From Candidatus Bathyarchaeota archaeon (lineage in GTDB: Archaea; Thermoproteota; Bathyarchaeia; TCS64), in assembly GCA_018396865.1 (NCBI GenBank), contig JAGTRB010000001.1, forward strand, positions 133,970-197,969: 64,000 bases of DNA, read 5' to 3'. How positions within the stretch are numbered: the first letter of the stretch is position 1; each line of letters begins with the position of its first letter. A program made the translations under genes and the position numbers. Below, one piece after another: positions 1 through 25,697 of this stretch. Under the pieces are notes generated by a model that made no database searches, was not told the origin of the DNA, and saw only the letters and a program-made list of their open reading frames with translations.

Positions 1-370
1 CTCGAAGATCCTCAAAAGGCAGAATCCTAATGGCCACTGGGAATCGGAAGTCCGGCCCTATCATCCAAAGTATAAGAGCACATAACTGGCAGATAATGAT
101 CCTCAGCCAGCTTGGCTTAGATGGTGAGGATGATAGGGTTAAAAAGGGCATGCGAATGGATCTATCGCTTCTAGCATGAGGAAGGCGGATTCAACACCCG
201 CGGTAGGGAGGTGGCGGAGGAGGAGTATGAGCTGGAGAGGGGGCGGACCATAAGGAAGGGCAGAGAGCCCTCCATAGTTTGAGCCAGTTTATCGATCATT
301 CCTCAGTTGACTCTGAGTAATCTTGAAGCTACTAGAGTTGTTATAATTAAAAAAATTTATAAGGAATTCT

Positions 371-1219
371 TTGAATGACTATCTAGTCATGATTGAGTGG
401 CCTAATGGTTCTAGATGTGCTGTTTGCTTCACCTTTGATGTAGACGCCGAAATCTCATGGAGAGGGGTCTTAAGAAGAAATAACATCTATAGAGATGACC
501 CAGTGGTTCTCTCCCTCGGAACATACTGCATAAAGAGAGGCCTCCCAAGAATTTTAGATATTTTGAGAAAAAATGATATTAAAGCTACCTTTTTCGTTCC
601 AGGTAGAATTGCAGAAATTCATCGAGAACAAGTTAAATCTATCATAGAAGATGGACATGAAATAGCTCATCACGGATATAATCATATTGTTCCTACCAGG
701 CTAAGTCCAGTTGAGGAAGAAGAAGATTTTAGAAAGGGATTCGAATTACTAAGAGACCTGTGTGGAGTAACCCCGTCAGGTTACAGATCTCCCGGTGAAG
801 GTTTAAGCGATCATACCTTAAAAATAATCACTAAATATGGGTTACTATACGAAAGTAGTATGATGGATGATGATGTTCCATACGTCGTAGATATTGATGG
901 TAAAAAACTTGTTGAACTTCCATGGAGATGGATACTTGACGATTGGGTTTATTTCGGATTCAACTATTTCCCACCATTAGAATACAGGAAGGCCCATCCT
1001 GAAAGCCCTAGAAAGGTGCTTGAAATATGGAAAGATGAATTTGACGCCATATATGATGAAAATTTATATTTCATGATAATAATGCATCCCCAGATAATGG
1101 GCCAGCCTTCTAGAGCAAGAGTCCTTAATGAGCTGATAAATTATATAAAATCTAAAGAGAAAGTTTGGATCACAACTGCAAGAGAGCTAGCATTATACTG
1201 CGCCTCCACTCTCAAATAG
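371..1219 (+). CDS. Polysaccharide deacetylase (CE4/NodB family)
   Basis: TFDVDAE Asp-Asp motif and HHGYNH His motif typical of CE4 deacetylases; AT-rich gene. Confidence 0.6.
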   Translation: MNDYLVMIEWPNGSRCAVCFTFDVDAEISWRGVLRRNNIYRDDPVVLSLGTYCIKRGLPRILDILRKNDIKATFFVPGRIAEIHREQVKSIIEDGHEIAHHGYNHIVPTRLSPVEEEEDFRKGFELLRDLCGVTPSGYRSPGEGLSDHTLKIITKYGLLYESSMMDDDVPYVVDIDGKKLVELPWRWILDDWVYFGFNYFPPLEYRKAHPESPRKVLEIWKDEFDAIYDENLYFMIIMHPQIMGQPSRARVLNELINYIKSKEKVWITTARELALYCASTLK

Positions 1220-1451
1220 AAGGAGCTTAAATCCAATTGCGCCATGCCCACTACTTCCTTTTTACTGGTTGCCGCAGCATTGTCTTCATTTTTCTCCAGG
1301 CACTCTCCTTGATGAGAAAGATAGAAAACCTAATCTCCGATTCATCCCGGAAGAACACTGTGGATCTTCTCTCTCCCGTAACCTTCTAACAGCTCTGCTC
1401 TTCTCCTCAAAGCTTAAGTTTTGTTAATAATATTGCTGAAGATGAATAGTC

Positions 1452-1838
1452 TTGGGCGTATTCAGCGTTAAGGCAGTTATATGGAACCCACTGAACCCAT
1501 CAAGGAAGTCTGAATTAGAGCTACTGGTCGATACGGGATCAACATACACCGTGCTTCCGACAGGGCTGCTGAGGAGGCTGGGGGTTGACAGCATGAGGGT
1601 TGTCAGGCTTAGATTAGCTGACGGCAGGGTCACTGAGAGGCCCCTGGGAGAGGTCGGAATAGAGATAGAGGGTATAAAAGCTACTGCTACACCCGCCGTC
1701 TTCGGAGAGGGGGACACCTCCCTACTGGGGTCTGTCACCATGGAACAACTAGGCCTAGCCCCAGATCCGATCGAGAAACGCTTAAAGACGGTTGAAGCAT
1801 TACTCATGACGGTAAGGACCAAAGAACAGCTTTTGTGA
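1452..1838 (+). CDS. Retropepsin-like aspartic protease (clan AA), TTG start
   Basis: LLVDTGSTYTVLP motif (DTG active site), ~128 aa, size/fold typical of single-domain retropepsin-like proteins. Confidence 0.6.
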   Translation: MGVFSVKAVIWNPLNPSRKSELELLVDTGSTYTVLPTGLLRRLGVDSMRVVRLRLADGRVTERPLGEVGIEIEGIKATATPAVFGEGDTSLLGSVTMEQLGLAPDPIEKRLKTVEALLMTVRTKEQLL

Positions 1839-2195
1839 AACGTACACTATAGATACCGGTTTAATTTTAGATAGATATCTAAATGAGGCGGCGGAGGCCG
1901 TTTCACAAAAGCGCACGCCGATTAACGAGTTTATTAAGGATTTCGCCATCTTTTTTATGGTTGTTTCATACTTTTTGGTTTAGCGGGTAAACGGTAAAGG
2001 CTAAGGTTGATGTAAGGGAAGATGTTTATAAGGTTTAACAGAAAAACATCAATAAGTCTTATGGTTTAGACAACCATTGAGATAGACGATGATCTCTGGA
2101 GGCGCTTCAGCATCCTCGTCCTCCGTGAAAGGGGTGAGCGGAAGAAGAACGAAGTAATAAGTGAGCTGATCAAAGATTATGTTGAGCGCAGCGGC

Positions 2196-2477
2196 TTGAC
2201 GGAGGGTCCTCAGCAACTAAAATACATCCTACAAGTCGAGGAGGAGAGGGAGAAGTTCCTCAAGATCCGAAACAAACTGGTTCAAGAGCCTAGCTATAGA
2301 GGAAAATACGTTGCAATCTTTCAGGGCAAAATTGTAGGATGCGACGACCACAAGGGGAAGCTCGCTAAAGCCGTTTACGAGAGGTATGGCTACGTTCCAA
2401 TATATATCGATATGGTGGCTATCGGTGAAAGACGTGTAGAAGTTCCCTCGCCTGAGTTGACCCGCCATGAAGTATAG
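2196..2477 (+). CDS. Small conserved archaeal protein (DUF5678-like), overlaps start of downstream retropepsin-like gene
   Basis: 93 aa ORF, motif KYVAIFQGKIVG; 11-nt overlap with 2467 ORF suggests operon. Confidence 0.4.
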   Translation: MTEGPQQLKYILQVEEEREKFLKIRNKLVQEPSYRGKYVAIFQGKIVGCDDHKGKLAKAVYERYGYVPIYIDMVAIGERRVEVPSPELTRHEV

Positions 2478-2839
2478 CCTTGACTACAACCCTCCAGCCC
2501 CTTCTTTAAAGGTTAGAATCAGCAGTCCAACATCAACTCATTCGATAGAGATTGAGGCAAAAATAGACACAGGCGCAGATATACCGGTGCTCCCACAACA
2601 CTTGAATAAACGAGCTTAGACTCATTCCCGCAAGTCGCGTATCCGTCTCATCCTTTAACGGGCGAGAAGAACCCAAATACACATACTTTGTAAATCTACA
2701 CTTTAACAACTTCAAATTCCCAATGGTTGAAGCCATTGGTGCCAAACGCCATAATGCCCTTCTCGGTCGAGACGTCCTCAACATGCTTAAGACCACGCTT
2801 GACGGCAAAACTCTGAGCTTCGAACTCTCTGACCCTTAA
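2467..2839 (+). pseudogene. Retropepsin-like aspartic protease, disrupted by a +1 frameshift near 2606-2619
   Basis: N-part (frame 1) has IDTGADIPVLP and stops at TAG 2617-2619. C-part (frame 2) continues LRLIPASR...ALLGRDVLNMLK...SFELSDP to TAA 2837-2839; parts align with intact paralog at 1452. Confidence 0.5.
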
Positions 2840-4005
2840 ACCGCGCAAACATCGCAAAAGCCGCAAAGCTAAAGACACCAGCCAAATTCACCATCGAAGC
2901 CTTTCAGGCAATATTCACCGCTTTAAGGGTTGACCCTTTCAGGATCCCCAAGTGAAAGAAATCAGCTACGAGCTGAGAAAGACGATCCTAGACTACGTTA
3001 TAGTAGCCACAGCCCCTGCGCTGAAAAACAAGACGTTTACGCACGCGATAAATCATTTGCCATATTGGGAGAGAGAAGAGAGTCTTTAAGCCAGAAGATT
3101 CTCCTTAGGAATACATGATCTTCTTAGAAAGCTCACTTAGATAATTTTTAATTAGGTGAAATTTAGAGCCTTGTCAGCTGCTCGATGATGCTGACCCCCT
3201 TCCTATCGACGACCATCCTCTGCGAGGCTAGTAGGACAGCGGCGAAGAGGAAGCTGATGGTTATCCCTAGGAAGGGCTTCCTGCCCTCGAGGTAGTCCCT
3301 AGCCTCTACAAACCTCTCTTGCATCCCAGAGAGATAGGGGTCAAGATGCCTCCTGAAAGGAGCCATACAACAGGTTTTAATATCCGGATAGAGTTAAAAA
3401 TATCGATTCAGAACCCCCTCCTTCCAGGACCAGGGATGGAACCGCAGCAAGCCTTAACCCTCTCCTGAGATATAAGCAGCTATTTTCACATTAGGTGGAG
3501 ATGTAGCTCCTCAACGGGTCCCAGCTGTTGGGAGGTTGAAAAGGGTTTGATTCTCAGCCTGTTTCTTGAAATAAGCTTGTTTTCTTAGGCTGATCAGTCC
3601 TCCCAACCGCTGGGTATTACAGAAAATTTTCTTCCCGATAGAGTTTGGGGTTGAATCTGAGGATTCTGAGGTATCAGATAGGGGTGGGGAGGGGGTTGGA
3701 CTAGGGTTCCATGTGGATATTCGGGCCCCTCATCATATCTATTCTGAGGAGGGCGTCTAAGCCAGGTCCGTAGATGACGTAGACGAAAGTATCAGATATC
3801 AAACATATGATGGCATATAGCATCTAAACCTCTATGGTGGAACATATACAGCTTTCCCTCTCCTCTATCCTCCACCCCTTCTTGCCCTTAGGGCTTGTAG
3901 AACTTAATGCTTAGGGATAACCTAGTGTTGCTGAAGTAGACATCGAAGAGCCTCCTCAGCTGGAGGACCGGAGCCACAATCTAGTTTTTATTTCACTGGT
4001 GGGTC

Positions 4006-4422
4006 CTATGCCCTTCTTCTTTTGATGATGAAGACCGTGAGTGCCATGACTGCAATAGATAATCCTATCCAAGGGGTCAGTAGTTCCTCTATTCCCATCG
4101 AGATCAAGGCGCCTCCGACCGGAGGAGAAGGTGGAAGTTGTGGAGGAGAAGGTGCAGGCTGAAAAGCTAGCCCACCTATTGGACCAAGAGCACTCGGAAT
4201 TAAAGTCGTTAAAACATTACCATTCAAATCCAACTTGTACAAACTACCATACGTAGAAGAAGACTGATAAGCCCAAAGATAACCTTCTTCTGCTCCAACC
4301 AGCATTGGAGATTTTGTCGTAGCAACTATCATTGCTATCAACACGACTGAGAAGAGGAAGCTCCCATTTGACAACCTTGTTTTTATATTCTGAAGCACCT
4401 CCTCATCTTTCCTCAACTTCAT
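4006..4422 (-). CDS. Small secreted/anchored protein: N-terminal signal anchor, Pro-rich linker, C-terminal TM plus RRRA tail
   Basis: N-term hydrophobic FLFSVVLIAMIVATT; linker PAPSPPQLPPSPP; C-term IGLSIAVMALTVFIIKRRRA resembles tripartite C-terminal sorting signal. Confidence 0.5.
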   Translation of the reverse strand: MKLRKDEEVLQNIKTRLSNGSFLFSVVLIAMIVATTKSPMLVGAEEGYLWAYQSSSTYGSLYKLDLNGNVLTTLIPSALGPIGGLAFQPAPSPPQLPPSPPVGGALISMGIEELLTPWIGLSIAVMALTVFIIKRRRA

Positions 4423-4703
4423 GAAAATCTCATTTTTGAATTTATTATTAATTATTTAAATATTTGCATTATGGGTGGTGATGTCAAGTTAAGGTCTTTC
4501 TTCTAGTAGAGGCTAAGCATCCCTAGCGGCTCGGGCTTCGGGGAAGAGCTGCATGCTGGTTGTACGGGGAAGGTGTCTCCTGACCCGGTTGCGGTAGATC
4601 TGCCAAGCCTTTAGCAAGAGTCTGGCTCCCTTGAGGATGCGGCCTACTTTTTGAAGCTGAACGCCAAATCCTAAAAATTTCAGGAGAAGAGGAGGCCCCT
4701 AAA

Positions 4704-5798
4704 TTGAGGTTTCTGCATTTACCGGACTTCGACCTGGTTATAGAGCTCCAGCTCAAGGAGTGGGAGGAGCTGGCCCCGAGGCCCAACGCAGACCTGCTGC
4801 CCCCCGACCCATCCCTAGAGGGAACTGGAAGAAGCTACGTCGCCCGCCTGGATGAAGCTTATCCTATTTCTCGTGAAGTGGGATGGAGAGCCAGAGCCAG
4901 GGAGGAAGAGAAGAAGGATCTCGAAGCCAAACTCGTCGAGTACCTCTGGTGGATGAGGAGGCAGGGATACGCCGATGAGACGATCAGGGGTTACGTGCTG
5001 GCCCTTAAGGTCCTAGCCGCAAGGGGTGCAGACCTCAACTCCCCAGAGTCGGTGAAGGAGGTTATAGCTAGACAAAAATGGTCCGGGAACAGGAGGAGGA
5101 ACGTGATAAACGCCTATTCGCTATTCTTGAGGATGGTTGGAGGCCGCTGGGAGAAGCCAAAGTGCGAGGTTGAGCAGAAGATCCCCTTCATACCAACCGA
5201 ACAGGAGATAGACGCCCTCATAGCAGGATCGAACAGGAGGCTCTCAACGTTTCTACAGCTACTTAAGGAGACGGCGATGAGGGCCGGTGAGGCCATTAGG
5301 CTGGAGTGGACGGATATAGATTTCGAGAGGCGCCTCATAACCCTGAATAAACCAGAGAAAAGAAGCAGCCCAAGGGTCTGGAGGGTGAGCAACGAGCTCC
5401 TGGCGAGGCTAATGACCCTTCCAAGAGAGGGGAAGAGGATCTTCCCAACATATAACAACATGAAGGGAGTATTCCTAAAAACAAGGAAGAGGTTAGCAAA
5501 CAAACTCCAGAATCCAAGAATAGAAAGAATAACCTTCCATACATTTAGACACTGGAAAGCCACAATGCTATACCACCAAACAAGAGACCCATACTACGTA
5601 AAACAGTTCTTGGGACATAAAGCCCTAAACAACACAGAGATCTACATAACAATAGAGAAAACAATATTCGGAGAGTACAACGACGAGTTTATAGTAAAGG
5701 TAGCGAGCAGGCCCGAGGAGATAAAAACCCTCCTAGAGACGGGATTCGAGTACATATGCGAGAAGGACGGCCTGATGTTCTTCAGGAAGCGCGCATAA
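4704..5798 (+). mobile_element. int: Tyrosine recombinase / phage-type integrase
   Basis: SAM-like N-domain; catalytic signature R...HTFRHWKAT...LGHKAL...TEIYI (R, H-x-x-R, H, Y); 56 nt upstream of tRNA. Confidence 0.85.
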
Positions 5799-5823
5799 AA
5801 GCTCAACAGCCAACCCCTAAACC

Positions 5824-5832
5824 TTAAAAAGT
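5824..5832 (+). promoter_or_regulatory. Putative TATA-like box for tRNA (CTTAAAAAG) ~26 nt upstream of tRNA 5-prime end
   Basis: A/T-rich box at appropriate archaeal promoter spacing; a second A/T box TTATAAAAAA lies at 5841-5850. Confidence 0.3.
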
Positions 5833-5853
5833 TACCGGGGTTATAAAAAATAG

Positions 5854-5960
5854 GCCGGGGTTGCATAGCCTGGCTAATGCGCTGGACTCATGATCCAGAG
5901 GGCTGTGGCACCAGCGCCCAGGCCGGATAGAGATCATGGGTTCAAATCCCATCCCCGGCA
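5854..5960 (+). tRNA. tRNA-Met (anticodon CAT at 5889-5891; elongator-type G1:C72, could be Ile2-CAU) with ~32-nt intron at a non-canonical position (between anticodon stem and T-stem, 5899-5935)
   Basis: Acceptor GCCGGGG/CCCCGGC, D-stem GCAT/ATGC, anticodon stem CTGGA/TCCAG with loop CTCATGA, T-arm ATGGG-TTCAAAT-CCCAT, discriminator A, then T-run CTTTTT; 37 nt where 4-5 nt variable loop expected. Confidence 0.75.
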
Positions 5961-5966
5961 CTTTTT
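5961..5966 (+). terminator. T-rich archaeal termination signal after tRNA
   Basis: CTTTTT immediately after discriminator base. Confidence 0.4.
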
Positions 5967-5967
5967 A

Positions 5968-6738
5968 ATGAATCCTCCTCACTTTTTCTGGGGTTTACTT
6001 CCTCTTCCTGAAGATCTTCGCGCCCTCCATCTAGCAGACATATTCGAACCCGGATTCCACGAGTTCGCAGGCCTCTTGGTTTTTGCGACCATAGCCACAA
6101 TAGTCGCGGATGATGATGCATTACTAGTTCTGGAGGCGCTTGTCAACAATTACTATATCCCAAGGGAGTATATTCTGCTGCACATTTCAGATGAGGAGTC
6201 TTCAGGTGTTCATAACGCCACATTGGCTGGGATAATTGAGAGCATAAACTGGGTGAATGAAACTTCAACTGGAGATGATGATGTTATAATTTATTTCTCG
6301 GGTCACGGTACGGGGAGGGGTAAGAGGGCTGGGATGGTCGCGCAGGATGGAGGGGTCCTGTGGGATCATCAGCTTGCAGCCAATCTCACCGAGATACTGG
6401 GCCATGCTAGGAGGGTTGCGGTGATATTCGACAGCTGCTTCTCAGGAGGCTTCCTAGACGACCTGGAACCCATACCCAACCTGTTAGCCATAATGGCCGG
6501 TAGAGCCATCTCATTCGAGGCCGCCTATGGGCATGGGGTCTTCACATACTGGCTCGTATGTCAGGGAATCATCAATGGCTATGCTGATGATCCAGAGCTC
6601 AACCCACACGCAAAAAAGGATGGCGTGATACCCCTTGAGGAGGCTTATGACTACACATACCATAATTTACTAGGGCAGAGCAAGCCCAAGATACTGGATA
6701 ATTACGAAGGGGACTTCCTTCCCTTGAAAGATAATTGA
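5968..6738 (+). CDS. Clan CD cysteine peptidase, caspase/metacaspase(C14)- or legumain(C13)-like; N-terminal hydrophobic anchor
   Basis: His-Gly dyad in VIIYFSGHGTG and catalytic Cys in VAVIFDSCFSGGF (DxCxSG) with correct spacing; ATG at 5968 in frame. The listed ORF start 5890 is not real: it lies inside the tRNA. Confidence 0.6.
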   Translation: MNPPHFFWGLLPLPEDLRALHLADIFEPGFHEFAGLLVFATIATIVADDDALLVLEALVNNYYIPREYILLHISDEESSGVHNATLAGIIESINWVNETSTGDDDVIIYFSGHGTGRGKRAGMVAQDGGVLWDHQLAANLTEILGHARRVAVIFDSCFSGGFLDDLEPIPNLLAIMAGRAISFEAAYGHGVFTYWLVCQGIINGYADDPELNPHAKKDGVIPLEEAYDYTYHNLLGQSKPKILDNYEGDFLPLKDN

Positions 6739-7045
6739 TTAGGCTAGAGATTATGTACTGCCCTTTTCTCCTTTATTTTTAATTTAATTCTTCTATGGGT
6801 AAAGTCACTCCGGTATTTAGGATTGCTATCGGCCTGTCATCTATCGGTCTAAATGCTTAGAGCCTTTAAAATTGATGATGCTGGGGCCAGAGTGCTAGTC
6901 AGATTAGTTTTTTACCGTGGAGTAGGATGTTGAAAGAGACCGTGAACTTCTATGGGGCTTATCTCCCTAAAAGTTTCTAATGATCTATAAATTCTGATAA
7001 TCATAATTAAGTGAGAGAGGTCTAATTCCATTAATTCTATTAGGA

Positions 7046-8242
7046 TTATAGGTTTGTTAGCTTGGGTTCGCTGAGGGCTACAGGCCTTCCTCTTTCGTAG
7101 TATACCCTTGGTGTTAGGGGGTTTAGCCCCACGCATAGGGTGTAGGTCATTACTCCTGCTTGTCTGGCTAGGTTGCTGATGGTGTTCTCCCCCTCCCTAC
7201 CTATGAGTTCGACTGTATCTCCCTCCTTGGCCTCGACCCCCTCGAGGTCGATTATGTGGTGGTTGACGGAGACGGATCCAAGCACCCTGCACATCTTGCC
7301 CCCGACCCTGACTAGCCCCTTGCTTGAGAGGCCTCTAGGATATCCATCGGAGTATCCTGCATGGATGGTTCCCACCTTCATCCTCTCCGGGGCGATGAAC
7401 CTCCGATTGTAGGTTAGGGGGTCTCCCGCCTCTATCCACTTCACAAGCTCGATCCTGGCCTTGAAGGATAATGCCTGCCTCAGGTCTAGGCCCGCCTCCC
7501 TGTCCTCCTCCTCCGGGTATACCCCGTAGATTGTCAGTCCCGGCCTTACGGCGTCGAGATATGACTCGGGCATGTGGAGGATGGCGTTGCTGCTCGCTAT
7601 GCTCCTCGTGCCTGGGTCTATCCCCCTCCTCCTCAGCTCCCCCTCCACGGCCAGCATCCTCTCAAGCTGGATCCTGTCGTAGGCCCTATCCTCCGTGAAG
7701 GTGGAGAAGATCCCCTCAAGCCTTAGGCCTGGAAGGGAGGAGATATATTCTATGAAGTCGGCGGCCTCCCCATACCTCACTCCAACCCTTCCAAGCCCCG
7801 TATCCACCTTTACGAAGACACCCGCCTCCAAACCTAGGCGGAGTGCCGTCTTGCTTAGCCTATCCGCCACCTCCCTTGTGAAGACCGCTTGGGTGACCCC
7901 TTCCTCGATCACATAATCATACTGCTCATTGGAGAAGATGGGGTCTATGTTGATGATCCCGCAGTCGAGGCCCGCCCCCCTCAGCTGCTTGGCCTCCCAG
8001 AGCTTCGCGACTAGAACCCTCCTTACCCCCCTCCTCATAAGGTGGGCCACTATTGGAACTAGGCCGTGGCCGTAGGCGTTGGCCTTCACGCACGGGATGA
8101 CCTCCACCCCCACCCGCCTCCTGATCTCCTCGAGGTTATGGGTCACGCAGTCGAGGTCTACCTCAAGCCATGTAGGGTATCCCTCCAATCTCTCCTCTAT
8201 CTCTTTGAGGGTGGGCTGAGCTCTGAAGAATGGCTCCGCCAT
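7046..8242 (-). CDS. alr: Alanine racemase (PLP-dependent, fold type III)
   Basis: VKANAYGHG PLP-lysine motif near N-terminus, ~398 aa. Confidence 0.8.
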   Translation of the reverse strand: MAEPFFRAQPTLKEIEERLEGYPTWLEVDLDCVTHNLEEIRRRVGVEVIPCVKANAYGHGLVPIVAHLMRRGVRRVLVAKLWEAKQLRGAGLDCGIINIDPIFSNEQYDYVIEEGVTQAVFTREVADRLSKTALRLGLEAGVFVKVDTGLGRVGVRYGEAADFIEYISSLPGLRLEGIFSTFTEDRAYDRIQLERMLAVEGELRRRGIDPGTRSIASSNAILHMPESYLDAVRPGLTIYGVYPEEEDREAGLDLRQALSFKARIELVKWIEAGDPLTYNRRFIAPERMKVGTIHAGYSDGYPRGLSSKGLVRVGGKMCRVLGSVSVNHHIIDLEGVEAKEGDTVELIGREGENTISNLARQAGVMTYTLCVGLNPLTPRVYYERGRPVALSEPKLTNL

Positions 8243-8414
8243 AGAGCATCAAATAGGAGCTACCTGAGGATGAATAAAAGGGGCTTGCCTCTTCAGAAGG
8301 CTGATCAACGAGGTTCATGGCGGGTCTCCATCTCGGTCGATTTAATCCCAGTCCTCTATATTCGCCCACATGGTAACAGATACAATTAATTAACTCTCTA
8401 AATTGATATAGAAT

Positions 8415-10626: not shown

Positions 10627-11028
10627 CTAAATGAACAGAGCCCTCACTCCAAAATCTCCGGCTACCTTAACTTGTTTATCATCCCTCGATATCAATTCAA
10701 CTTTACGCCTCCTCGCCAATTCTATGTATAACGCGTCATATATCGATACATCGCCTTTAAACGCTATGTTAAACGCTTCTTCTAGTAGGGCCTCTTGACT
10801 CTCAATTTTAATGTTAATATTTAATAGATATTTTAGGGCCTCAAATGCCTTTCCGACTTCTTCAAGCTTTAACCTGTTCCTCCTATAAGCTAGTAAAATG
10901 GCGTTGGCGACTTCCTTCAATACTAAATCTAAACTAATGGTACCCTCTAATATAAATTTCCTAATCTCTTCAAATCCTTCCTCCCTTAAGAGATATGCTG
11001 AAAGTGCTGAAGCATCAATGACCTTCAC
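10627..11028 (-). CDS. vapC: PIN-domain ribonuclease toxin (VapC-like)
   Basis: VIDASA..., DALYIELA, ISRDD acidic residues of PIN fold; 133 aa. Confidence 0.7.
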   Translation of the reverse strand: MKVIDASALSAYLLREEGFEEIRKFILEGTISLDLVLKEVANAILLAYRRNRLKLEEVGKAFEALKYLLNINIKIESQEALLEEAFNIAFKGDVSIYDALYIELARRRKVELISRDDKQVKVAGDFGVRALFI

Positions 11029-11260
11029 GATCCTCCCTCACCAACCGCGAAATAGATCCTTTAGGCTGCTTTGGCATATCCTTAAGAATGTTCTCGACCA
11101 CCTCAACATTTCTTATCCTCTCAAACTCCTCAATCTTCATAACTATGAACTCCCTAATCTCCTTGGGCCAATCAACCACGTTTTTAAGACTATCCATCTT
11201 TACTTTAACCTCCCTTGGAACCTTAACGCTCACAACGCTCACGGCGGATCGGTATACCAA
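11015..11260 (-). CDS. vapB: Putative RHH/CopG-like antitoxin (VapB-like), 14-nt overlap with PIN gene
   Basis: 81 aa, SVKVPREVKVKMD ribbon-helix-helix-like N-terminus, overlaps downstream toxin. Confidence 0.45.
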   Translation of the reverse strand: MVYRSAVSVVSVKVPREVKVKMDSLKNVVDWPKEIREFIVMKIEEFERIRNVEVVENILKDMPKQPKGSISRLVREDREGH

Positions 11261-24613: not shown

Positions 24614-25051
24614 CCATATTGAAATATAGAAGTGAATCATGATTATCTCAATCAATAGAATTCATGATGAATCATGATCATCTTCATCAACTTTTCCATA
24701 CCATCGCTCTAAGAATCTCTCAGTAATCGTGAGGCCCTCCCAGCCCTGCTTAGGGCGTCCTCGGCGTCAGCCTCAGTGAATCTCTCCAATGGAGGGACCC
24801 TCCTCTCCGAGTCTCCATAGGTTACACGGCCGTGCTCTGGGGCGAGGCGCCTTCGTCATTGAGGCAAGCATATCTAGCTCTTCAATGAAATGGATCCCAA
24901 GCCTCTCGACGATGCATTCCCTATTCTCCACGAGCACTTCCCTCACCTCAGAGCTAGGATTATGGCTCCAGCTCCGAATCCCGCACATCAGTTAGTCCTA
25001 TTTTGTAAGAAACTTTATTTATCAGATTAATTTATTTTCTGATGATGCTTC

Positions 25052-25306
25052 ATGGTTGAGAAGATTAGGGTTGGAGTTCGAGGGCAGGTGGTCATCCCTA
25101 GAAGGCTTAGGAAAAAACTGAAGCTTGAACATGGAACCATCCTTATGGTGGAGGAGACCGGGGATGGGCTCCTCTTAAGGCCGTATGAACCTGTGAAGGA
25201 GATGAAAGGGCTGGGGAGGGGAATCTTCGGAGACCCGATTAAATATCAGAGGAGAATCCGAGAAGAGTGGGGTGCAAAAAAGCTTGAGGATCGCGTTGGA
25301 CACTAA
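25052..25306 (+). CDS. vapB: AbrB/MazE-family (SpoVT/AbrB swapped-hairpin) antitoxin
   Basis: KIRVGVRGQVVIPRRLRKKLKLEHGTILMVEE; overlaps downstream PIN gene. Confidence 0.6.
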   Translation: MVEKIRVGVRGQVVIPRRLRKKLKLEHGTILMVEETGDGLLLRPYEPVKEMKGLGRGIFGDPIKYQRRIREEWGAKKLEDRVGH

Positions 25307-25697
25307 CATACTCATATATTTTCTTGAGGGGATAGAGCCCTACTCTAGTAGGGTTGAGAGCCTCATGAACTCCTTCATGAAGGGAGACAACGAGGGGATA
25401 ATCTCAACGATAAATGTCGCAGAGATCTTGACAGGATTCTATACATCAGGGGATGAAGATGGAGCAGCAAAGACGAAGATGCTCCTCACAGACCTCACTC
25501 TAAACAATTTTGAGATAGTCCCAGTCACCTTTGATATCTCCGATCTAGCCGCAAAGCTTAGGGCGAAGAGGGGAGGAAGGCTGCCCGATGCATTGATTGT
25601 AGCCACGGCGATAAACCGAGGAGCTGAGATTTTATTCTCTAATGATGAGGACATCAAAAGGTTCGAAGAGGATATTAAGGTTTCAAAACTCGAATAG
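25272..25697 (+). CDS. vapC: PIN-domain toxin (VapC-like)
   Basis: IALDTNILIYFLEG, VAEILTG, DALIVATA, FSNDED acidic residues. Confidence 0.7.
   Translation: MQKSLRIALDTNILIYFLEGIEPYSSRVESLMNSFMKGDNEGIISTINVAEILTGFYTSGDEDGAAKTKMLLTDLTLNNFEIVPVTFDISDLAAKLRAKRGGRLPDALIVATAINRGAEILFSNDEDIKRFEEDIKVSKLE

Follow-up and report, generated by a model that had tools for sequence, protein, structure and literature searches.

Integration into tRNA genes occurs nearly always at the 3′ end, and the tRNA keeps its own promoter; pNOB8-type elements recombine with its 3′ part. The attI site of integrons carries accessory direct repeats (DR1/DR2), which bind the recombinase, resemble the core half-site and lie on one side of the crossover. 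Insertion toward the other end of a tRNA gene is known from the pTN3-like integrases of Thermococcales, which are SSV-type enzymes, recombine with the 5′ half of a tRNA, bring an element-borne promoter and were called “unique in archaea” in a 2021 review (PMC8371274). The same review gives att cores of 40–50 bp for suicidal integrases and att sites of 40–50 bp for pNOB8-type elements (PMC8371274). In Caldiarchaeum subterraneum, CalSub-E1 (tRNA-Ser) and a 1.87-kb element at tRNA-Thr(GGU) are arranged as a 5′ tRNA fragment, an element encoding a putative recombinase and a complete tRNA (PMC3293823; PMC6563490).

The locus described here lies in a 64-kb stretch of DNA from a Candidatus Bathyarchaeota archaeon (“the window”, meaning the whole stretch that was analysed) and contains an integrase of a Bathyarchaeia family of which we found no description in the literature: abundant, with an intact gene, tRNA 5′-end targeting and a very short core. 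Like the pTN3-like integrases, the family targets the 5′ half of tRNA genes, and its elements may likewise supply the promoter. In contrast, the pTN3-like attP lies inside the open reading frame and the gene is split into int(N) and int(C), whereas the attP of the family follows the stop codon and the gene is whole; the att core is 14–22 bp against the 40–50 bp of suicidal integrases, and the protein is by sequence nearest to Xer-like recombinases, unlike the pTN3-like enzymes. With pNOB8-type elements the family shares, in a comparison by layout, an intact integrase at the element edge beside att and a tRNA target, but it recombines with the first 14 nt of the tRNA rather than at 40–50 bp sites. 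Of the two archaeal classes named in an earlier, sequence-only reading of this DNA, the integrase is thus not SSV-type, and it is pNOB8-type by an operational definition (intact gene, att outside the open reading frame).

The Caldiarchaeum insertions, again compared by layout, resemble the family in their 5′-distal recombination and come from a related archaeal lineage; they are, however, single cases with a repeat that extends to tRNA nt 27 and an intron that came in with the insertion. The closest solved structures are those of archaeal XerA (PDB 4A8E, 5HXY), with the same two-domain fold and catalytic residues, from which the family differs by an extra C-terminal beta-alpha-beta-beta domain, usually a zinc ribbon, multiple copies and its association with tRNAs. 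Integron attI offers an analogy to the acceptor-like copies described below, in a different recombinase clade and at a different target, with recombinase binding being putative in our case.

The integrase and its family

4704–5798, plus strand: tyrosine integrase open reading frame (364 aa, TTG start, TAA stop at 5796–5798; Pfam match)
5688–5795, plus strand: family-specific C-terminal beta-alpha-beta-beta domain (residues 329–364) after Tyr314, found in 58 of 58 aligned homologues

The sequence-only reading of an intact integrase with its catalytic residues is borne out: the protein matches Pfam Phage_integrase (PF00589; E = 1.3e-19, 71.1 bits against a cutoff of 27.1), and R193, K219, H279-x-x-R282, H305 and Y314 are invariant in an alignment of 58 sequences. 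It shares 55–72% identity with the 57 homologues, and the profile of the C-terminal domain scores 85 bits. Homology to the family begins at about 4896 (residue 65), and the GTG at 4878 is a possible alternative as the true start. The window integrase is a short form without the N-terminal zinc ribbon typical of the family; the C..C...C..C pattern is present in 53 of 79 relatives and absent from every reading frame upstream of the gene, which makes the activity of this copy uncertain. The AlphaFold2 model (mean pLDDT 85) has two domains, a helical core-binding and a catalytic one, and the C-terminal domain is a block with pLDDT 81–96 (strand 329–334, helix 337–346, strands 349–354 and 357–363). 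Foldseek places the model with XerA, IntI4, Tn1549 Int, XerH, lambda Int and Cre at E values of 1e-11 to 1e-5.

A search at E ≤ 1e-5 gives 2,819 homologues, and every one of the best 120 scores above 420 bits; we define the family by at least 45% identity over the core together with the C-terminal ...GFEYVC..G..FFRKRK domain. Relatives are encoded in 276 stretches of species-representative genomes, nearly all from Bathyarchaeia, and among the best 79 loci, 15 genomes have two to four copies, often at contig ends. The position on the 5′ side of a tRNA on the same strand, which had been thought unusual, is the standard layout of the family: of 79 homologous loci in Bathyarchaeia, 50 have a tRNA on the same strand (His, Phe, Ser, Met, Pro and others) within 130 nt 3′ of the integrase.

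At 12 loci, direct repeats of tRNA positions −3 to +14 delimit elements of 2.9–10.7 kb. Across 13 repeat pairs, identity stops at tRNA nt 14, except in two tRNA-Pro loci, where it continues to about nt 19, and the att core, 14–22 bp long, starts 25–100 nt past the integrase stop codon, leaving the gene whole inside the element. The bounded elements also carry large open reading frames of 520–1180 aa together with small ones, and their left ends run from the core through ~14 nt to a palindrome, TGGAGAnnTCyCC (TGGAGAnnTCTCCA), and a T-run. One locus (L025) is a tandem array with two integrases, and integrases on both sides of the tRNA are found in L004, L007, L035 and L067. No terminal overlaps indicating circularity were found in family loci that make up whole contigs. 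The integrase–core–left-end junction of L024 was considered as proof of attP and set aside, as its downstream open reading frames look host-like on reading; the idea that left ends generally carry an inverted-repeat counterpart to the acceptor half-site was likewise dropped, with only locus-specific cases (L005, L024).

The tRNA gene and the sequences beside it

5799–5853, plus strand: element-derived spacer, the integrase-side arm of attP/attR by family comparison (55 nt)
5824–5831, plus strand: A-box 1, TTAAAAAG, at −30 to −23 from the tRNA start (centre about −26.5)
5834–5842, plus strand: pseudo-acceptor copy, ACCGGGGTT, matching the tRNA 5′ end at 8 of 9 positions, 20 nt upstream of the tRNA
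5843–5853, plus strand: A-box 2, ATAAAAAATAG, in the spacer
5854–5960, plus strand: tRNA with CAU anticodon (Rfam tRNA, 55.4 bits; gathering score 29)
5854–5867, plus strand: recombination core, GCCGGGGTTGCATA, tRNA nt 1–14, placed by the att identity blocks and by a sister contig that diverges after 5867
5900–5932, plus strand: 33-nt insertion of the tRNA, placed in its variable-loop region by the Rfam alignment
5961–5994, minus strand: spacer of a second element end, reading GAAAAAGT-GAGGAGGAT-TCATTAAAAAG and then the reverse complement of the tRNA 3′ end (TGCCGGGGAT...)
5995–6084, minus strand: pseudogene fragment of a second family integrase, its last ~30 codons, convergent with the tRNA

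The tRNA 3′ of the integrase, with an insertion as noticed before, is the sole tRNA of the 64-kb window. Its anticodon loop is CUCAUGA, making it an elongator Met or Ile2 tRNA, and the G1–C72 pair means that it is not an initiator. Default ARAGORN overlooked the gene and detected it once introns were allowed. The 33-nt insertion, unchanged in sequence in the related loci L068 and L124, is a putative non-canonical intron that we would expect to be spliced.

The spacer between integrase and tRNA measures 55 nt, one less than the 56 nt previously given. It fits the family layout, which has a same-strand tRNA within about 100 nt of the stop codon and for which the spacer consensus is AAAAAGT-xCCGrrGTC-...-AAAAAGT-tRNA, with the 8/9 copy at −20 and an A-box at −30 to −23. 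The 9-nt copy of the tRNA end that the sequence-only reading saw in the spacer is real and recurs across the family, although both of its coordinates were off by one: the 5′ 9-mer of the tRNA itself, GCCGGGGTT, occupies 5854–5862. A lone 8/9 match would be weak evidence, yet such copies recur family-wide at a fixed offset of −20/−21, where the 9-mer identity averages 5.2/9 for integrase-adjacent tRNAs against 3.2/9 for 21 non-adjacent tRNAs of the same loci. The host side of attL averages 3.3/9, so that the pseudo-copy is specific to the element side, and in L124, the closest relative, GCCGGGGTC occurs in three perfect copies with a 21-nt period. The pseudo-acceptor copies may be accessory integrase-binding sites, and A-box 1, centred where a TATA box is expected, is a candidate promoter of the tRNA.

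On the other side of the tRNA, the spacer at 5961–5994 has, by direct reading and family comparison, the same two-unit layout as the integrase spacer, and on the plus strand it presents two T5 runs after the tRNA. It leads into a fragment that reads ...QEACELVESGFEYVC*MEGAKIFRKRK*, with an internal stop and the family stop codon at 5995–5997. This second remnant is found by tblastn (E = 0.002) and, in the six-frame window, by the C-terminal-domain profile (24.1 bits, E = 1.3e-7), and it is also present in the sister contig L081.

The right edge of the core recurs in a sister strain. There, a contig end (L080/L082) departs from the window right after tRNA nt 14 into a canonical element left end, with ~14 nt, the palindrome and a T-run after GCCGGGGTTGCATA; this junction rests on the 51-nt tail of contig JAWCOI010000035.1 and may reflect a second element in tandem, an attP junction or a chimeric assembly. 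The window tRNA appears to be a live insertion site at nt 14, still used in the sister strain. Together with the second remnant, the junction indicates a hotspot used from both sides, and the suggestion of an integration hotspot with element remnants is supported by a mobile-element integrase, a strain switch after nt 14 and a decayed second integrase.

How the locus may have arisen

The direct repeat of tRNA −3 to +14 with a left-end palindrome, which marks the bounded elements of the family, is absent from the window locus. The sequence-only reading had proposed a search for direct repeats of tRNA segments, and no att repeat or attL of the CAU tRNA occurs in the window or in ~14 kb upstream, sister contigs included. 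Exact (at least 11 nt) and mismatch-tolerant searches of the window for copies of the tRNA 5′ and 3′ ends gave chance-level matches only, and an Rfam E-value scan of 1–7200 gave no tRNA fragments. Neither the core nor the left-end palindrome occurs in ~7 kb, or via sister contigs up to ~9.4 kb, upstream of the window start, and the fetched upstream sequence shows no structural variation beyond the L080/L082 tail. No replication gene or family cargo was found in the ~14 kb upstream of the integrase, and for the locus itself neither an att pair nor an excised circle nor an empty site turned up. An 18/19 match to the sister tail at L080 621–639 was rejected as attL, since it lacks an acceptor sequence before it and a palindrome after it and overlaps the start of a gene. 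Scans of metagenome and viral sequences for an incoming element with TTCTC-N7-10-TGGAGATATCCCCC returned mostly chance matches within genes; three matches (L094, L114, L116) resemble true family left ends, and none fits the CAU tRNA. P0015, considered as a second element of the same assembly, belongs to a different assembly.

The missing attL, replication gene and family cargo point to a solitary integrase-proximal end, and we consider it probable that the locus is such an end of a tRNA-5′-end family element, accompanied by a second, decayed remnant on the 3′ side. This reading builds on observed features: membership in the family, its layout, the att cores seen in relatives, the missing attL, the second remnant and the strain junction. 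An attP directly 3′ of the integrase stop would recombine with the first ~14 nt of the tRNA gene, so as to place the element upstream of the tRNA with the integrase as its last gene, reading toward the tRNA. The first 14 nt of the tRNA and all sequence upstream of them would then be element-derived, and the element would supply the TATA-like A-box at about −26 and at least one imperfect, 21-bp-phased acceptor-stem copy, while the host promoter and a 14-nt tRNA stub would be left at the far end (attL). The lack of attL, replication gene and zinc ribbon suggests that the window now holds a solitary right end, which may no longer be able to excise; a second family element would formerly have been inserted at the tRNA 3′ end, leaving its spacer and the last ~30 integrase codons. 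Dependence of the tRNA on the element promoter may be what has preserved the right end.

Could the element instead be large and intact, with an attL more than ~14 kb upstream and the upstream genes as its cargo? The IMG/VR contig L088, a predicted 38-kb provirus ending at its tRNA, shows that a very long family element with a distant attL is possible; at about 12 loci, no repeat is seen in 10 kb of upstream sequence, and the GC content of 1–7000 (0.37–0.51) is below that of the adjoining alr/AOR genes (0.55–0.61). Low-GC patches are also found elsewhere in the window, however, and the upstream neighbours are SHMT, two aminotransferase-type genes, a thioredoxin, a metallophosphoesterase and a POR subunit, collinear in six further contigs of the same population, with no replication or structural gene. 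The flanking genes had been taken for typical cargo, but no upstream gene is shared with the 12 bounded family elements, and we regard a large intact element as unlikely. There is similarly little chance that the recombinase was domesticated and is kept with the tRNA, where it would, for example, control or block further insertions or drive tRNA expression. The gene is under purifying selection (dN/dS 0.085–0.11, against 0.11 for alr), its protein is 100% identical in three assemblies, the integrase–tRNA(CAU) module is kept in three lineages in which the other flanks differ, and the zinc ribbon is lost in the subclade of the window integrase. An integrase moving between hosts would, however, be just as likely to show purifying selection, the L068 copy carries a frameshift, a short-form integrase (L049) sits in a repeat-bounded 7.3-kb element, and at synonymous sites the integrase has diverged further (0.86, up to saturation) than alr (0.53) and AOR (0.64), a pattern that speaks against simple vertical descent.

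The window, L068 and L124 are homologous from the integrase core (~4896) to the tRNA 3′ end (5963–5965) and differ in both flanks, as it would if the integrase–tRNA pair were itself mobile and the tRNA carried by the element. This is very unlikely given the 13 repeat pairs, whose identity ends inside the tRNA (nt 14, ~nt 19 in the two tRNA-Pro loci), meaning that the tRNA body belongs to the host, and given the sister-strain breakpoint at nt 14; the tRNA, with one difference in 107 nt, is also far more conserved than the integrase (80% nucleotide identity), and the second, 3′-side remnant accounts for the altered 3′ flank. We give almost no credence to a chromosomal XerA dif-recombinase or to the C-terminal fragment of a self-splitting SSV-type integrase. 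Archaeal XerA is indeed the best solved-structure match by sequence and fold, and an XerA model is the top NCBIfam match, but the score for NF040815 is 84.6 bits against a cutoff of 220, and the family has several copies per genome, beside many different tRNAs, inside repeat-bounded elements and with varying flanks. Against the SSV type stand the att core past the stop codon, the whole gene in bounded elements and the lack of a tRNA fragment before the open reading frame, and the SSV1 integrase is absent both from the solved-structure sequence matches (E ≤ 0.01) and from the 50 fold matches listed. As for the pairing of an XerA with absent att repeats, by which the sequence-only reading would have been overturned, its XerA half fails, and the absence of repeats holds for the window locus only.

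Wider implications and flanking genes

A broader reading, put forward tentatively and doubtful as a whole if all its parts are to hold together, would join the solitary end to the rest of the family. The family would be a class of non-suicidal integrases that recombine with the first 14 nt of a tRNA and replace its promoter; a sister clade would possibly do the mirror image in the acceptor stem at the tRNA 3′ end and supply a terminator. Since the 5′ strand of the acceptor stem is the reverse complement of its 3′ strand, one half-site could serve both ends. In both clades, 21-bp-phased pseudo-acceptor repeats would vary with the tRNA that is targeted and might act as accessory integrase sites. 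Finally, a lock-in might arise where attL is lost and an essential tRNA relies on element DNA, with integrase ends being retained, which would explain the common solitary integrase–tRNA modules under purifying selection.

The att rule of the family gives a concrete way to bound mobile elements in Bathyarchaeia genomes; these elements are overlooked by current provirus finders and default tRNA scans and break assemblies. It also raises the testable idea that essential tRNA genes may come to depend on element-borne promoters or terminators. For the window, three annotations follow: the solitary end with its integrase, the pseudogene of a second integrase and an insertion site at tRNA nt 14.

The integrase–tRNA(CAU) module occurs in three related lineages with differing flanks on both sides, and in L068 it is inverted relative to alr/AOR; a simple family model offers no explanation for the changed flanks and this inversion. 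Annotation of the neighbouring genes with PHROGs and PADLOC-type tools yielded nothing useful. The retropepsin-like protein noticed among the flanking genes does match PF13650/PF13975; the second copy, called a pseudogene, is cut short to 50 aa in the window, and the gene call in sister contig L080 gives it 123 aa. The ~900 nt of non-coding DNA reported in the flanks shrink to ~640 nt (3367–4005) without an open reading frame of at least 50 aa. The clan CD assignment of the peptidase has matches, although weak ones (C13, 25.1 bits against a cutoff of 22.8; C14, 21.6 bits against 21.4), and the gene is located 3′ of the tRNA, beyond the span that a 5′-inserting element occupies. Its start is most likely at 6076, as called in the sister contig L081, and the gene thus does not overlap the tRNA.

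An integrase family ahead of tRNA genes

The features on which the analysis turns are these:

4704–5798, plus strand: integrase ORF, encoding a 364-aa protein
5854–5960, plus strand: tRNA gene, 55 nt past the integrase stop codon and the sole tRNA in the window
5995–6084, minus strand: tail of a second family integrase (pseudogene), 35 nt beyond the tRNA 3′ end, recognised by tblastn, translation and profile

The integrase is a 100% match to an NCBI entry annotated as a tyrosine-type recombinase/integrase of Candidatus Bathyarchaeia archaeon; its catalytic domain matches Phage_integrase (71 bits) and keeps the full catalytic set, R193, K219, H279, R282, H305 and Y314, all conserved. In the AlphaFold2 model (mean pLDDT 85), residues 1–54 are disordered and are followed by a four-helix core-binding domain, the catalytic domain and, past the catalytic tyrosine, an additional, confidently modelled beta-alpha-beta-beta domain (residues 329–363). 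By sequence and fold, the closest solved structures are archaeal XerA, integron IntI4, Tn1549 Int and XerH. The N-terminal zinc ribbon present in 53 of 79 relatives is absent from the window integrase, with no trace of it in any reading frame. The ORF is unbroken and identical in sequence across three assemblies, and its dN/dS between lineages is 0.085–0.11, as against 0.11 for the neighbouring gene alr. Inside the gene, GC falls from 0.56 (4501–5100) to 0.45 (5101–6000) and A-skew rises sharply.

Homologues number 2,819 at E ≤ 1e-5, the best 120 of them sharing 55–77% identity across residues ~68–364, and a scan in which a single genome stood for each species gave 276 stretches encoding relatives, nearly all from Bathyarchaeia. 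Among the best 79 loci, 15 genomes hold 2–4 copies each; family copies are often found at contig ends. A same-strand tRNA, mainly His, Phe, Ser, Met or Pro, follows the integrase within 130 nt in 50/79 loci (ARAGORN labels are wrong for several intron-containing tRNAs here). The position on the 5′ side of a same-strand tRNA, which a sequence-only reading of the window had called unusual, is instead the family norm. Members of 40–50% identity are regularly convergent with the tRNA (L061, L070, L072, L073, L077–79), which is the classical 3′-end arrangement. A further subgroup (loci L040, L041, L046, L048, L050–L053, L057, L065, L066, L069 and L071) lacks an adjoining tRNA, and several of its integrases have in common a motif after the stop codon, ...TTA(A/G)CCCTTAAC..., so that these members probably use a non-tRNA target.

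Element boundaries and the attachment region

Twelve loci carry a direct repeat of the tRNA 5′ end, 14–34 nt long, 2.9–10.7 kb upstream of the integrase. Identity between the repeat copies begins 0–4 nt ahead of tRNA nt 1 (19 nt ahead in locus L005) and ends after nt 14 (~nt 19 at two tRNA-Pro loci); between the repeats lie ORFs of 520–1180 aa plus small ORFs, with the integrase as the final gene. Judged from these sequence bounds, the family elements appear to use the first 14 nt of a tRNA gene, the core, as their insertion site and to sit upstream of the rebuilt tRNA. A 38-kb IMG/VR predicted provirus has the same ending, and locus L025 holds a tandem array with two integrases. At L024 (6104–6250), as at L011 and L019, only a 5′ tRNA stub and the left-end motif follow the integrase; L024 has no complete tRNA downstream, and its subsequent ORFs look host-like by eye. 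Such junctions suggest rearrangements scattering tRNA fragments, a process reported in Caldiarchaeum.

The far side of the element is formed by the core, ~14 nt, a palindrome of consensus TGGAGAnnTCyCC and a T-run. The integrase-side spacer (consensus AAAAAGT – xCCGrrGTC – about 5 nt – AAAAAGT – tRNA) is composed of two ~21-bp units, each an A-rich box plus an imperfect copy of the first 9 nt of the tRNA. At offsets −19 to −22, tRNAs adjoining an integrase show a mean identity of 5.2/9 to their own 5′ end, compared with 3.2/9 for other tRNAs within the same loci (n = 21) and 3.3/9 on the host side of attL, the far (left) element end. The pseudo-copy tracks its target (GGGGTAcTG for tRNA-Pro, GCGGaGTcT for tRNA-Ser, aCCGGGGTA for tRNA-Met), and in L124, the closest relative outside the species and a bearer of the same tRNA, GCCGGGGTC occurs three times without mismatch, repeated every 21 nt. 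Because the copies recur across the family, match the target and exceed both controls, the 9-mer first noticed in the window spacer is a genuine element feature; both members of that pair exist, although they had been placed one base too far left. At L009 (~7816–7845), a tRNA-Ser not adjoining the queried integrase has an 8/9 pseudo-copy, GCGGGGTCG, at −21, which may be the footprint of another, or lost, element end.

In the window, A-box 1 (TTAAAAAG, 5824–5831) is centred 26.5 nt ahead of the tRNA start; the archaeal TATA box usually lies ~26 nt upstream of the start, and A-box 1 would be the promoter of this tRNA. The tRNA itself (Rfam score 55.4 bits; anticodon CAU, Met or Ile2; a 33-nt insertion in the variable-loop region) was not detected by a default ARAGORN run. 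It is probably functional, since it is kept together with its insertion in both L124 and L068, a related species. Its anticodon loop (5887–5893) is CUCAUGA, hence G at position 37; a tRNA decoding AUG or AUA codons is expected to have A37, and CUCAUAA is the loop in the other CAU tRNAs that family members target.

Comparison with known systems

The case set against an integrated element, that of the chromosomal XerA, is rejected: the integrase scores 84.6 bits against a 220-bit cutoff, the family has several copies per genome, and it is associated with tRNAs. As for class, the core sits past the stop codon of an unsplit gene, which excludes the SSV type, while the intact gene makes the integrase pNOB8-type in an operational sense, by gene layout alone. 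Krupovic et al. (2019; PMC6563490) give one 5′-distal case, CalSub-E1, and in Caldiarchaeum Sugahara et al. (2012; PMC3293823) report a 1.87-kb recombinase element that has a 5′ tRNA-Thr fragment on one side and the tRNA on the other. The literature searched yielded no account of the Bathyarchaeia family; its incomplete coverage makes this weak evidence of absence. The family is a new form of tRNA-targeted integration, distinguished by a gene that stays intact, a 5′ core of 14 nt, expression signals putatively supplied by the element, phased repeats that match the target, and a mirror-image clade at the 3′ end.

The window copy and its relatives

Six other contigs of this population (99.5–99.9% identical) supplied sequence upstream of the window. 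Neither there nor in the window did we find a second core copy (two or three mismatches allowed), a left-end palindrome beside a core, or a tRNA fragment of any sort. The upstream genes, some of which were taken at first for element cargo, encode a small membrane protein, retropepsin-like proteins, a polysaccharide deacetylase, HTH_45, DUF2153, aminotransferases, SHMT, a metallophosphoesterase and a thioredoxin; they are collinear across all six contigs and missing from the bounded elements, which leaves that role unsupported. The window copy is best read as a solitary integrase-proximal end, unable to excise because attL is gone, and the locus is the decayed end of an element of the ordinary kind.

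The second retropepsin-like gene (2467–2619) is a truncated 50-aa ORF, called at 123 aa in the 99.9% identical contig L080 (7765–8136); it sits after a DUF5678-like small gene, a pairing that occurs repeatedly here. PIN/VapC-type toxin–antitoxin pairs lie at 10627–11260 and 25002–25686, the one at ~25 kb sharing 71% nt identity with a MazE/PIN pair of L124, where it lies within the variable region ahead of the integrase.

Beyond the tRNA, the second integrase tail reads ...QEACELVESGFEYVC*MEGAKIFRKRK*, with an internal stop, and terminates at the family's stop position (tblastn E = 0.002; C-terminal-domain profile over the six-frame window, 24.1 bits, E = 1.3e-7). Its spacer, read on the minus strand, has the same two-unit layout as the family spacer, and direct reading places a 7/10 pseudo-copy 21 nt ahead of the reverse-complemented tRNA 3′ end. 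One tRNA is likewise flanked by integrases on both sides in L004, L007, L035 and L067. Since the 3′ acceptor strand, once reverse-complemented, equals the 5′ acceptor strand, a tRNA gene offers one half-site at either end, in opposite orientations, and switching between 5′ and 3′ targeting would be easy.

As far as 5867 (tRNA nt 14), the sister-strain contig JAWCOI010000035.1 (L080/L082) matches the window at 99.9% identity; it then passes into TTCTCACCTTAAATTGGAGATATCCCCCTAAAAGCGCCCCTTTTTTCTGTT, a canonical element left end, where the contig ends. An attP junction or an assembly chimera are alternative accounts of this passage; a second element in tandem, as in L025, is the simplest. Elements have thus entered the tRNA site from both sides, and it is probably still active. 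The second integrase tail, the sister-strain junction and the solitary integrase end bear out the proposal of an integration hotspot or element remnant.

In L068 (nt identity 85.5% in alr and 85.7% in AOR, another neighbouring gene), the tRNA with its insertion differs from that of the window at 1 of 107 nt and is preceded by a frameshifted copy of the integrase (80% nt identity). When L068 7800–11112 is set against window 4896–8244, the integrase–tRNA module lies in inverted orientation with respect to alr/AOR, between flanks that both differ from those of the window. In L124, toxin–antitoxin genes lie in the upstream region along with 127 nt of another integrase. From the window to L068, the synonymous divergence of the integrase runs from 0.86 up to saturation, above the 0.53 of alr and 0.64 of AOR, so that replacement by related elements and vertical descent are equally likely. 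The integrase gene may also be a mosaic, for example with its 3′ half and spacer swapped with other family elements. Saturation against L068 is confined to the C-terminal half of the integrase. In L068, AOR and alr are also separated by an insertion of 5.3 kb.
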